Virus record (IMG/VR): IMGVR_UViG_2740892229_000022 | Length of the DNA: 35,130 bases | Origin: a virus | Taxonomy: Duplodnaviria; Heunggongvirae; Uroviricota; Caudoviricetes | Direction: 5' to 3' (one strand) | Shown: positions 15,001 through 21,000 of the stretch, one piece after another | Layout: each line of letters begins with the position of its first letter | How positions within the stretch are numbered: position 1 is the first letter of the stretch | Program-made: the position numbers

Positions 15001-18000
15001 TATTACGCTCCACCCATGCCAGCGCCTTATCCCGTTCGATAGCGTTAACCCGGTCGCATTTTTCCTTCGACAGCTTCATGCCAGGAATCACAGGCTTACC
15101 ATCCACCATGATGGCGCCTCGGCAGATGGTCCAGATACCCGCACCATCACGGTATGCCGTGGTGTGGTTGCCTTCCTTTTCATCCAGAAACTGGTCGAGG
15201 ATTTCAGGCGCAGAAGCACCTGCGGCAATCAGCGCCAGAACGGCAGCCGATAAACCATAGCGGAGTTTCCTGCTCATCAGCTTACTCTCCCCGTGCCGCC
15301 TTACGCCTGTCCTCTCTGATTTTGAAATACAGGTTCGTCAGGTACGTCAGCAGACCAAACAGCAGACTCCCCAGCACGCCTATTGCCGCCCACTGAGACG
15401 GGGAAACCCTGTCCAGCAACTGCAGGAACCAGTAGCCCGTTCCCACCGCTGACGTGGTGTATGACACACCTGTTGTGATTTTTTCCATCTGGTTCATACC
15501 CCGCCTCCCGCAATCCGGAAGCTCACAACAATAAAAAAGACCACCGGCACACACCGATGGTCCCTGACGCATGCTTACATCATCATGTCGCTGTCCGGTG
15601 TGGGGTCACCGCTATCTGAAGCACTCCCCTCACCCGCGATGCCTTCCGGCTCCGGAGCTGCCGGTGCGCCCAGCAGTTCATCCAGAATGGCATCCACTTC
15701 TGCATCAAGACGCGCTTCCAGGTTATGGCGAAGTTTCTGTTTCAGTGCGCTCCGGACTTCTTCAGAGCGCAGGACTTCCTTCACTGCTTCAGCAGTGACC
15801 AGGGATGTAATTTCTGACATGGGATTTTCTCGTCGAAAGGTGTGATTAAGAAAGTTGCCGCTAAATGAGCGGCTCTTCGGGTTTGCTTCCGGCTGACTGA
15901 CTGGCGCTGATTTTCTCAGCGGCCCTTTTGTCAATCTGTCTGCGCCAGAAGTCACGCATGGCCCTGTACCCACCCGAAAGGAGATACAGCACACAGACCA
16001 CCGTACAGAAGTACAGCATCAGCTGATGAATAAATGTCATAATTTCTTACCGTTATGGTTGACTAAGTAAACAGTTTTCATTTAAAAATGCCGATGACGA
16101 AAGTGGTAGTATCTTTCCTTGATTCTCCATGAATCTCACACCGCCAGAGGTCTCAGGCAACTGGCGGCTTTTTTTATCATGCCGCGGCATCCGCGTTGTT
16201 CACTTCCACCACAATGCTGTCAATCAGCACCGGGTAAGTCGCATTCCTGGTAATGTCTGTCACATGCAGTTTATCCGCCGCAAATGCACTGACCGGTGAC
16301 TGCGTCAGCGTGAACGGTGTGCCATCCTGACCATCAATAACCGGCGTCACCTGAAGGCTGTTATTCCCGGCAAAGCGGAAAGCCAGCGTATGCCATTCGT
16401 TATCAAATGCGCCAAAGGTTCCCAGTTTCAGGTTGTTTGTCGCCACTTTCGCATTGTGGTACATCACATTCAGGTCTTTTGCATCTGTCTGGATGTAGAA
16501 CGCTGCCAGCAGGTTATTCCCCCCGTCTCCGGTCAGGGCAACGCCCTGTGGCAGTGAAGAGACCGGCCAGTAAAACGCCATAACATACTGGTTCGCAGCC
16601 AGCGCTCCCGAAACCTTAAAGCGGCAGCGAATCTGCCCCCCTTTCTGTAACAGAGCCGCACCGTTGCCCGCGGCGTACTCCAGCACCCAGCTGCTTTTAC
16701 CGGCCTCCTTGGTCAGCTTCACTGCCTTACCTCCGGTTCCCTCCGCATCGCTGACCACTTCTGCCCTGCCGCCACTGGCTGACCATCCCTGTACTTTCAG
16801 GCTTCCCTCTGACTCGCTGGCAAGGTAAGAGAGCAGTGTTGTGACGCCTGTGGCTTCTGCACCGGAAGGCGATGAAGGGCGCACCTCTGATACTGTCGAT
16901 GATGCCCCCGCGTTTAGCGCCACTCTTCCCGCATGGCGCAAAATCGCCGTTGCCAGACGGTCGGAAATAATCCCACGGCGTGCCCAGGCGCTGAAATGGC
17001 TCGCCCTGTCCTGTGACGTCCAGGTGGCTGAGCTGTCACGCCATTTCGAACCGTAATATCCGATACCCGGAATGTCCGGGTCTTCTTCCGGTTTGTTCGT
17101 CGGCACATTCACCCCGTTCTCATCGGTCATGAACGGTACGAAATGGATATTCTTTTCCGTTTTGTTTTTATAGCTGCCGTACACCGTCTGGTACGTGGAT
17201 TCGTTCTTCTGCTTCCAGAAATACGTCGTATCTCCACATATCCAGGGAACACCGCCAGCAGAGCCACCGACGCACTGACCTGCCATATCCGCCAGGTCTG
17301 CACGGAATTTATCAACCAGCGCACCAAACTGTGCGGCATGATTTGCCGGCGTCCCGCCAAAATCAAATTCCCCCTGCATCCACACCACGGCAAACAGCAC
17401 ATTTTTCGGGTTCTTCTTCAGTGCTGCTTTTGTTCGACCGATAAGGTCCTTATACAGCGGCTTGTCCACANNNNNNNNNNTGCGTGATTTGCCGGCGTAC
17501 CGCCAAAATCAAATTCCCCCTGCATCCACACCACGGCAAACAGCACATTTTTCGGATTCTTCTTCAGTGCTGCTTTTGTTCGACCGATAAGGTCCTTATA
17601 CAGCGGCTTGTCCACACCCCAGCGGGTTGAATTCTCCGAGGCACCACTCGCGTCACTGTATGTGCCATCGGCTCCGGTGGTGAACGCTGAACCACCACGA
17701 CAGCACGGAACCAGCAGAATGCCCGCATTCGCCGGTATAAACGGCAGCAATTTTTTGGCGATATGCAGCCCTTGCCCCACGGTTCCGTACTGCCCCTTTG
17801 ACAGGTCCGCTTTCGGATGGTTAAGGCGGCTCATGTCCTGCACATCATGCAGACAATGGTCCGCCGGAATGATGTCGTTATATTTACAGGCGACACCGCC
17901 CGGTGTCACCGTACTGCGACGCGCCAGCTGCTTAATGCGCGGGTCCGGACGGTCATATGTCTCCGGCAGCGGAAGGCCTTCACCATATGCCATGCTGTTT

Positions 18001-21000
18001 GACTGCCCCGCCAGAACCACAACAAAGTAATACTCCGGGTCTCTGGTGGCGCTGATTACTGTGCCTTCTCCATCCGACGGCTTCACCAACACAGGTGTGG
18101 TGACATCACCTTCCGCCGCAATGGCCTGCATCAGAGTATAAGGCGTGATGGCCACCGGGCTGCCAAATGGCTGCCACCCCTCCTTCAGTTTTTGTGTCAG
18201 CTTTTCCGCAAGGTCTGACGGCGACGCCGCCCTGACAACATCATAATGTTTANNNNNNNNNNCAACAGGTGTGCTCACATCACCTTCTGCGACAATCGCC
18301 TGAATAAGTGCTGCGCCATCATCCGTATACGAAGAAAACGGCCCGCCGTATGGTTGCCATCCTTCACGAATTTTTTGAGCAAGTGCATCAGCAAGGTCTG
18401 ACGGCGACACCGCCCTGACCACATCGTAGTGTTTAAATGCCATGAATCCTCCCGGCCGGGATAGTACTGAATCAGATAAAGAGCAGGCTGAAGTCCGGAA
18501 GTTACAGGACAATGGCAGAAGGGAGACTACAGCCCGCAATTCGAAAAAGGCCGCGCAGTTGCGCAGAGTGATTACTATGGGGTATTATTCGCCAGCTGAA
18601 ATATTACTTCACGTTTTATTGTTTATTCCTTGCCGCCCGCGTCTCCCAGCGCGGGCTTTTTTTTGTCCATAAGAAAGCCCCTCCGGAGAGGGGCTGAAGC
18701 CGCATTTCTGTATCACCATGAACATGGTGCCGGGTGCCTCCCGGTGAGTTCAGTCCGGTGTCCCTGAACCCGCGTATCTCGATCCAGATTGTCGTCAGAG
18801 ATGACACCTTATACACCAGTCGCCCCTCCGCACAGGGGGATTCACCATGCGAAATTTTTTTAACAAATGCTCAGTCTGACAGGCAACTGTCAACTGACTG
18901 AATTGTGACACAGATTACACTTGTTACCCACATACCACGAATCAGGTTATGCCTCAGTCATTATTAAACTGCACTTCAGCAAATCCGGAGCCTGATTCAC
19001 AGGTACTGGATTTGATTGTGACAGTCATTCCTGTCAACTGAGCACTTTGCAGTAGCGGTTGCAGATTCCAGCGACTGGTCCAGTATTCTTTCCCGGCTAC
19101 TTTTACTGTGAATGTATCGTTCTCATTATACTTGGAAAACTCAATTTTACCTTTAGCACAATCTGCCGCCATTGCATTAACAGAAACTAATGCAAATAAA
19201 ACCGCCATAAACATCTTCTTCATACTTAACTCCTTTATTCACCCGTTGTATATAAAGACTGTGACTTTCTGTTCAGAAACGCTGCTGCTGTATTACTTTC
19301 CCATAATGTATTGTTTATTTTTATAACGGGCCTGTCGCCAGTTATCTGACATTCTGGTTGACTCTCTTCATTCACAGCGCGAACAGAACGCGCCCCCTGA
19401 TGATGGCAATTCAGTATAACGGCCACAGTACCCAGTATCGCTGATATATTATTAAAGGATATTCTCCCCACTCTGACACCATCCTCTCCCCGATACTCCG
19501 GGAGCACATTGCTGATTCGCCCCCAGTTCAGAGTGAGGTCCACGTCTCCCGGCGTCATCGTATACACAGGAGCAGTTTCAGACAGTGCCTGACGAAATTC
19601 TCTCTGTATCTGCCTGAAGCGTAAGGCTTCTGCTGTGACAGTGACAAAACGCAGAACTGCTCTGGATGCATCTCTGGTCATTGTATTACCACTGAACTCC
19701 ATTAACGCCAGATATGATGAAACCAGTGAGTGACGACTGATTTGCATTCCGGAACGTTCCAGCGCTGCGACACGTTGCAGAGTGGTATAACTGCTGTCCG
19801 TTGTCATGGAAACCGTTGTCACACCGGGCACTGATATATGTGTAAAATCTGAAAAACGGTAGAAAGTATTTGTTGCCGTATTAACGAATCCGGCCACATA
19901 TAAATTATTTTGCTCAATAATCAGACGAAGATGGTCAAAACGCGCCTGATAGACATCAAGCCCTCGTATATCCACAGCAAAATAACTGCCCGGTGGGGTG
20001 TGGTTAATAACAGACACCGATGTGGTCCCCTGAGATATATGCTCAAGAGGAGTCGATATTTCTGTCCGTATACTATTTAACGAAGAGACATAACTTTGTT
20101 GAGTCGAAAAGTCTATCGTAAATTCCCGGGAATAGGATACCGAAGAAAAACCCAGTAACAGGCACAGTACCCATTTAAATAATATACACTTCATATACAG
20201 GTGTTCCTTTTGGCTGAAGTAATCAGCACCAGACCCGGCGCAGATATAAAAAAGGCCCGCAAAAGCGAGCCTGGTAAATAAATATGGCGCGTTGTACTGG
20301 ATTCGAACCAGTGACCGATTGCTTAGAAGGCAATTGCTCTGTCCGGCTGAGCTAACAACGCTGAATACCGATAATGGACCGCCATCGGGGGCTCGAACCC
20401 CGCGCAGCCAGCTTAGAAGGCTGGCGCTCTGTCCCGATGAGCTAATGGCGGTATGTGATATGGTGGCCCTTGCTGGATTTGAACCAGCGACCTGGCGATT
20501 ATGAGTCGCTCGCTCTCACCACTGAGCTAAAGGGCCGGGCGCAGGATAATAACGGTACGTAACTAATCCTGCAATATCATCCGTTCTGACTGGCTAAATC
20601 CTGAACTTCCCTGACCGTCTGCTCAAAACGTTCAGTCTCCAGCTCAACGCCAGTTGCACGACGCCCCAGCGCCAGTGCAGCTTTGACTGTCGAACCCGAC
20701 CCCATGAAAAAATCTGCAACCAGGTCACCCGGACGACTGCTCGCGCTGATTATCTGCTGCAGCATTTCTGCCGGTTTTTCGCACGGATGTTTCCCGGGAT
20801 AGTACTGCACCGGTTTATGCGTCCACACATCCGTGTACGGCACCTGCGCCGTCACGCCAAAATACCGCCGCAGATGCTTATATTCACTCTGCAGTTCCGC
20901 ATACTGCCGGTTCAGTGAAGTATACGTCTCCAGCAGCTGGTGGTGGGGCTTTTCCAGTTCACCGCGCTGATGCTTCTCTTCTGCCACCCGGGCAAACAGC

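Follow-up and report, generated by a model that had tools for sequence, protein, structure and literature searches.

Among the sialate 9-O-acetylesterases encoded by prophages and known as NanS-p, those of phages 933W (L0105/933Wp42) and phi24B (gp84/vb_24B_21) consist of a DUF1737 domain, a SASA/SGNH esterase domain and a lectin-like C-terminal domain, in that order, and the known genes lie between stx2B and the holin gene and occur in many copies per genome. The position of nanS-p is conserved, in the order Q-stx-nanS-p-S; several N-terminal (DUF1737) variants exist, with Stx2b and Stx2d phages standing furthest from Stx2a phages, and de-O-acetylation of Neu5,9Ac2 has been demonstrated for the NanS-p proteins of EDL933 and O104 (PMC10462455). 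A preprint describes the DUF1737 domain of phi24B gp84 as a capsid-binding decoration domain (10.64898/2026.04.10.717836). This analysis concerns the nanS-p locus of a 35,130-nt sequence from a virus of the Caudoviricetes (IMG/VR record IMGVR_UViG_2740892229_000022; the whole stretch is referred to as the window), in which the gene is broken by two gaps and appears to carry two DUF1737 domains in tandem. Comparison with complete genomes and with an induced phage gives high confidence that the tandem and the broken gene alike are scaffolding artefacts of a multi-copy prophage gene, and that the real locus is most likely intact, ordinary and single-domained.

The window gene has the three-domain order of the 933W and phi24B proteins, the same site between stx2B and the holin gene and the same multiplicity within genomes. 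Its N-terminal allele, here called v1, is of the kind found in Stx2d, VT1-Sakai and yecE-type phages rather than of the 933W type. No real difference from the known NanS-p was found, the extra DUF1737 and a repeated run of 45 SASA codons being artefacts of layout. In the window as in the references, the gene order is stx2A, stx2B, nanS-p, DUF1378, DUF826, holin and lysozyme. On this evidence the locus is almost certainly an ordinary nanS-p, the sialate 9-O-acetylesterase gene of a Stx2(d-type) lambdoid prophage, and its product is predicted to belong to the family that de-O-acetylates Neu5,9Ac2. Since nanS-p has already been well described as a fitness factor carried by the prophages of Shiga toxin-producing Escherichia coli, the locus holds nothing new for biology.

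Contigs and gaps at the nanS-p locus

Eight runs of exactly ten Ns split the window into nine pieces, which are treated as contigs and numbered from left to right, piece 1 being positions 1-8789 and piece 9 the 16.9 kb of 18263-35130. At six of the eight gaps the flanks overlap, the same 105-195 nt being present on both sides at 70-99% identity. Draft scaffolds in which contigs have been ordered along a reference and stacked by repeats share these features: spacers of fixed length, neighbouring contig ends that overlap in reference coordinates and are imperfectly identical, and small contigs that have identical copies at other places in related genomes. The likeness is one of general assembly practice.

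The nanS-p gene is spread over three contigs (right, middle and left, following the direction of the gene on the minus strand), and the first-pass annotation had rightly described it as broken by two gaps, which prove to be 10-N runs inside its frame, at 17471-17480 and 18253-18262. That annotation placed the gene at 16177-18442; the frame and the lower limit stand, while the upper limit falls one base short, the frame running from an ATG at 18443-18441 to a stop at 16179-16177. All three pieces are open in the gene frame, with neither stop nor frameshift. Pfam assigns DUF1737 (PF08410) to both the right copy (E=1.2e-12) and the left copy (E=1.3e-15), SASA to the 772-bp middle piece (E=5.8e-10) and DUF6645 to the 430-codon left piece, after the end of SASA (E=7e-75). 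The middle piece thus holds a second DUF1737 allele, v2 (about 18080-18252), together with the N-terminal part of SASA including its GQSN motif, and LAGQSNS is visible in the translation.

The same N-terminal motif had been noticed on the two flanks of gap 18253 and is indeed found there: the domain is assigned on both sides, and the flanks match one another by BLAST (E=2.7e-17). The two copies had been put at about 90% nucleotide identity, a figure that does not hold, as the measured value is 70% over 171 aligned nt (BLAST) or 74% over ungapped columns; at the protein level, 39 of 55 residues are identical (71%), with two indels. What had been taken for two alleles of one N-terminus laid side by side are paralogues brought together by artefact, as proposed, and they are members of distinct classes at about 70% DNA identity rather than near-identical alleles. 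The existence of v1 and v2 as distinct allele classes agrees with the N-terminal variability described in PMC10462455. The left block had also been said to end a few bases from the expected start codon, and v2 does begin at gene nt 9, 8 nt short of it. At the join, v1 ends in …GTGAGCACACCTGTTG and v2 starts with ATGTCAATTAAACATTATG…. The assembly problem extends beyond the N-terminus, probably to everything from 8800 to 18252. There is also a second duplication, absent from the first-pass annotation, in which 17336-17470 matches 17482-17616 over 135 nt at 97.8% identity.

The three contigs do not share one origin. They were compared with the complete genome of strain 2013C-4991 (NZ_CP027355.1) and with the induced phage ASU11 (ON416862.2, locus L007). 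The right contig, assigned to the Stx prophage because the stx2 operon sits on the same contig, matches the stx2-linked nanS-p of both at 100% identity over nt 1-181. The middle contig has a 100% match along its full 772 nt in a SASA-family esterase gene at NZ_CP027355.1 1843803-1844574, and in many O26/O103 genomes, and reaches only 92.6% identity with the stx2-linked copy. In 2013C-4991 its matching paralogue lies 1.2 Mb from the stx2-linked nanS-p, in a lambdoid prophage that is devoid of stx and has TerB and DUF3927 genes where stx would be. The proposal that the tandem is an assembly artefact is thereby borne out, the right copy being entirely stx2-linked in type and the left copy entirely that of another prophage. 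Several nanS-p paralogues per genome had been expected, and complete E. coli genomes have up to 14-15 matching places, with 6-7 in 2013C-4991.

The left contig is less simple. Inside nanS-p it has 13 mismatches to each of the two 2013C-4991 paralogues and is a mosaic, of stx type at gene nt 654-789 and 1896-1947 and of non-stx type at nt 855-1563, a pattern due either to gene conversion between copies in different prophages or to collapsed reads merged into a consensus. Overall it is 95.3% identical to ASU11. Positions 14637-15837 are 98-100% identical to a non-stx prophage of 2013C-4991 (L005) and 58-97% identical to the stx2 prophage; the far end (14637-14747) has the type of the non-stx prophage, and nothing in the contig matches Rz, the gene next after lysozyme in the stx2 prophage and ASU11 alike. 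The possibility that the left contig is a plain continuation of the stx-linked gene was considered and set aside on mixed evidence, namely the equidistant mosaic and the non-stx type of both the lysis-cassette part and the far end. Its closest relative among complete genomes, at 98.9%, is a locus (L006; NZ_CP027325.1 3369180-3371117) in a non-stx prophage with iraM upstream, where nanS-p has an internal stop and a pseudogene annotation; genuine nanS-p pseudogenes therefore exist in the gene family.

Laid on a reference locus (L001), the right piece occupies 3444-4481, the middle piece 2837-3616 and the left piece 1501-2971, with overlaps of 173 nt and 135 nt; the apparent tandem arises because these overlapping contig ends have been placed one after the other. 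In the best-matching complete genomes the region takes up about 2,981 bp, against 3,301 bp in the window, and query coverage reaches at least 80% in 593 complete genomes. Two reference loci annotated in detail each hold a single coding sequence of 1947 bp, 320 bp less than the window gene. When the overlaps are trimmed (right piece for nt 1-181, middle for nt 182-653, left for nt 654-1947), an open reading frame of 648 codons results, whose product differs from the stx2-linked protein of 2013C-4991 by K453R alone and matches both the chromosomal NanS/YjhS esterase (PDB 3pt5; E=1.4e-116, residues 74-396) and the NanS-p C-terminal lectin-like domain (PDB 6yp6; E=2.2e-139, residues 426-643). DUF1737 is single in the trimmed gene and in the reference genes examined. 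From these comparisons we infer that the real genome carries one intact gene for a protein of 648 amino acids.

ASU11 offers the closest comparison, being the complete genome of a stx2-carrying phage that was recovered by induction from E. coli O80:H2 and is near-isogenic to the window. It is 100% identical to 1-8127 (8.1 kb, the morphogenesis region), and over 18263-33262, a stretch that begins at nanS-p nt 181 and takes in stx2, Q and the replication genes, it shows one mismatch in 15 kb. Between these anchors ASU11 has 3,570 bp, comprising part of Rz, lysozyme, holin, DUF826, DUF1378 and one nanS-p of 1947 bp, whereas the window fills the interval with 9,473 bp spread over seven contigs. 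The nanS-p gene is intact in ASU11 and in 2013C-4991.

Breakpoints, the search for a tandem and competing explanations

The positions at which the contigs end follow the similarity between paralogues. The two 2013C-4991 copies are 69% identical over nt 1-180 and 99.2-99.4% identical over nt 181-653, with an identical run of 316 nt that begins at about nt 182, and the long Stx-prophage contig stops at gene nt 181, right after the last difference between v1 and v2. A stop at this point is what repeat-limited assembly would be expected to give, ending exactly where the paralogues become near-identical. At the other gap, the three mismatches within the 135-nt overlap (17338/17484, 17353/17499 and 17410/17556, or gene nt 786, 771 and 714) all fall at sites that separate the stx-linked from the non-stx paralogue of 2013C-4991, and at each of them the left contig has the stx-type base and the middle contig the non-stx base.

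These observations suggest how the scaffold may have been built. The Stx-prophage contig would have halted at gene nt 181, where its unique DUF1737 allele meets sequence shared at more than 99%; the contigs were then apparently ordered by similarity to a reference or by repeat links, so that contigs of paralogous prophages were dropped into the hole. The middle contig, as nt 9-780 of the other prophage's nanS-p, would have brought its own DUF1737 to lie beside the genuine one, and the left contig, overlapping the middle one by 135 nt, is probably itself paralogous or a collapsed consensus. In the record the three contigs are joined by 10-N spacers with their overlaps left untrimmed.

A natural counterpart of the tandem was sought with a query of the two DUF1737 segments joined without the spacer, against 5,426 complete E. 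coli genomes and 50,697 phage records, and no high-identity v1-v2 tandem was found in either collection. As a candidate for a real tandem duplication the query fails, both of its halves falling on the same 190 bp everywhere (best mean identity 85.4%), and each DUF1737 allele is found at one place per phage record. A conceptual fusion of v1, v2 and SASA was compared with 5.8 billion proteins, and no v1-v2 protein was among the top hits. Matches with 97-100% query coverage were rejected as tandems, the fetched ones being single-domain v1 proteins aligned across the gap, with one exception. That exception (P0001; UniParc UPI00207B4042) is a NanS-p fragment of 371 amino acids in which the first ~101 residues, comprising DUF1737 and the start of SASA, are exactly duplicated in tandem; it is a single sequence in the collection, its arrangement is unlike v1-v2, and it is probably another assembly artefact.

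Were the tandem real, the stx2-linked NanS-p would have v1 followed by v2 in one polypeptide, with the ten Ns hiding a few bases, and, given the capsid-binding role that the preprint reports for DUF1737, such a double-headed protein might attach to two kinds of capsid or bind more avidly. The in-frame read-through at gap 18253, the complete domain match of both copies and the N-terminal duplication within the database fragment just described all speak for it. Yet the v2 block has a 100% match of 772 nt in a paralogue elsewhere and gives out 8 nt before the ATG of that gene, the break in the v1 contig falls exactly on the repeat boundary, the two copies stand on different contigs with an N spacer between them and so lack the contiguity expected of a genuine tandem, and the near-isogenic ASU11 has a single domain. 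Given also that the architecture is missing from the genomes, phages and top protein hits searched, that the same overlap pattern recurs at five other gaps and that an in-frame join has a 1-in-3 chance of arising by accident, a natural tandem is scarcely credible. It is very unlikely, too, that the gaps mark a real lesion by which an insertion sequence (IS) element, a deletion or a recombination scar has disrupted the stx2-linked gene. IS3-family insertions do occur in or beside nanS-p in some complete genomes (H70, H72-H74), and the annotation of strain 2013C-4830 includes one copy as a pseudogene, with an internal stop; the three window pieces, however, are open in the nanS-p frame without stop or frameshift, no IS sequence was found at any contig end in the window, the breakpoints coincide with the boundaries of paralogue identity, and both ASU11 and 2013C-4991 have the gene intact.

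A narrower form of artefact deserves more weight, and is a serious possibility if still the less probable one. It would make only the v2 DUF1737 (about 18080-18252) foreign, with nt 182-653 of the middle contig, as a collapsed repeat, and the left contig representing the true stx2-linked copy. Consistent with it, two synonymous sites are all that separate the middle contig from the stx-linked reference across nt 182-653, alleles of stx type occur in the left contig at nt 714-789, at nt 1896-1947 and in the DUF1378 region, and the reconstruction is one residue off the reference protein. The flanking Stx-prophage contigs, however, are ~100% identical to ASU11, compared with 95.3% and 13 differences inside nanS-p for the left contig, whose end past lysozyme is of non-stx type and does not continue into the Rz carried by piece 1. 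The broader account, in which paralogous contigs of other prophages fill the hole in a multi-copy gene, remains strongly favoured, although several points weigh against it. The true sequence beneath the Ns is seen only indirectly; the reading frame happens to be kept at gap 18253; the stx-type alleles at the 5' end of the left contig and at the 3' end of the gene mean that part of that contig may be rightly placed; and natural duplications in the nanS-p family are possible in principle, as the exact 101-residue tandem in the database fragment illustrates.

In practical terms, annotation pipelines could call a read-through open reading frame of 373 amino acids, with XXXX and two DUF1737 domains, or else a nanS-p pseudogene, neither of which would be biological, and the copy number of nanS-p, its allele type and its DUF1737 variant cannot be read from this draft scaffold.

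The sharp boundary at gene nt ~181 (window ~18263; loci L001 and L003) is also that of a module, DUF1737 being 69% identical between paralogues and the rest more than 99%. In 2013C-4991 the v1 prophage has a head with a fusion of ClpP and the major capsid protein and a DUF1441/TerL module, and the v2 prophage has a different major capsid protein and an HNH/TerS/TerL module. Given the capsid-binding claim of the preprint cited above, the DUF1737 allele may track capsid type in these two prophages of one genome.

Block 8800-18252 and the remainder of the window

The features of the window are collected in Table 1. The packaging module of pieces 2 and 3 is a second one for the window, and this module (8800-12832) was not found in ASU11 or in the Stx prophage of 2013C-4991. 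Pieces 2, 4 and 5 have no match in ASU11 or in reference locus L004, and the match of piece 3 is limited to 86 nt. Piece 6 is 93-94% identical to the Stx2 prophage, solely as a lysis-region paralogue. By comparison with the non-stx prophage L005 of 2013C-4991, pieces 2, 3 and 6 are colinear at 91-96% identity, and the packaging module itself at 93-96%. The second packaging module probably consists of contigs of another prophage stacked into the scaffold, and the same comparisons indicate that most or all of 8800-18252 probably derives from other prophages or from collapsed consensus. The block, including its apparent second terminase module, should not be taken as Stx-phage sequence and is unfit for annotation or allele calls.

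Table 1. Coordinates of the nanS-p pieces, spacers and neighbouring features in the window
Feature	Position	Strand	Remarks
nanS-p codons 1-60 plus 1 nt, DUF1737 allele v1 (MAFKHYDVVRAVSPSDLADALAQKIREGWQPYGG...)	18263-18443	-	Left end of the Stx2 prophage contig
10-N scaffold spacer	18253-18262	.	Frame kept by chance (1 nt + 10 N + 1 nt = 4 codons)
772-bp contig, nt 9-780 of the other nanS-p paralogue	17481-18252	-	v2 DUF1737 and N-terminal part of SASA
10-N scaffold spacer	17471-17480	.	Reading frame lost on read-through
Overlap duplication around gap 17471	17336-17616	-	Both flanks are gene nt 654-788; 45 SASA codons present twice
nanS-p nt 654-1947 (C-terminal part of SASA, lectin-like DUF6645, stop)	16177-17470	-	Right end of contig 14637-17470
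DUF1378, DUF826, holin and lysozyme genes	14637-16176	-	Remainder of the left contig
stx2 operon	18954-20194	-	A subunit 19235-20194, B subunit 18954-19223; directly upstream of nanS-p
Five small contigs	8800-14626	.	Different TerL/TerS/HNH packaging module, second Rz, short repeats
TerL, 553 aa	8896-10557		Packaging module, pieces 2-3
TerS, 187 aa	10554-11117		Packaging module, pieces 2-3
HNH endonuclease	11310-11897		Split by gap 11636; flank duplicated over 114 nt

On one of the misplaced small contigs, an open reading frame of 113 amino acids (12271-12612, minus strand) has a lipoprotein-like signal (…LSSLVMGC…) and a C-terminal region that by eye looks similar to the C-terminal domains of TonB proteins, and could represent a prophage moron.

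The window toxin is, as we take it from its appearance, Stx2d-like. Its StxB is identical to that of the Stx2d-converting phage ASU11 and its StxA differs by one nucleotide; the B subunit also matches reference proteins annotated as Stx2c subunit B. Differences between ASU11 and the window are concentrated at the integrase end, with about 258 in 33263-35116, a pattern that hints at a different integrase or another attachment-site allele; the related Stx2 prophage of 2013C-4991 is integrated beside yecE. Compared with ASU11, the window also has a 43-nt insertion at 8128-8170 (AATCAAAAAATGCGCCTTTTTCCGCGCCGCCCGCCCCGTGTTC...), which is intergenic, between the lysis genes and the small terminase gene. 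Upstream of stx2, at 20285-20536, there are three tRNA genes, one Met-CAT (possibly Ile2) and two Arg-TCT.

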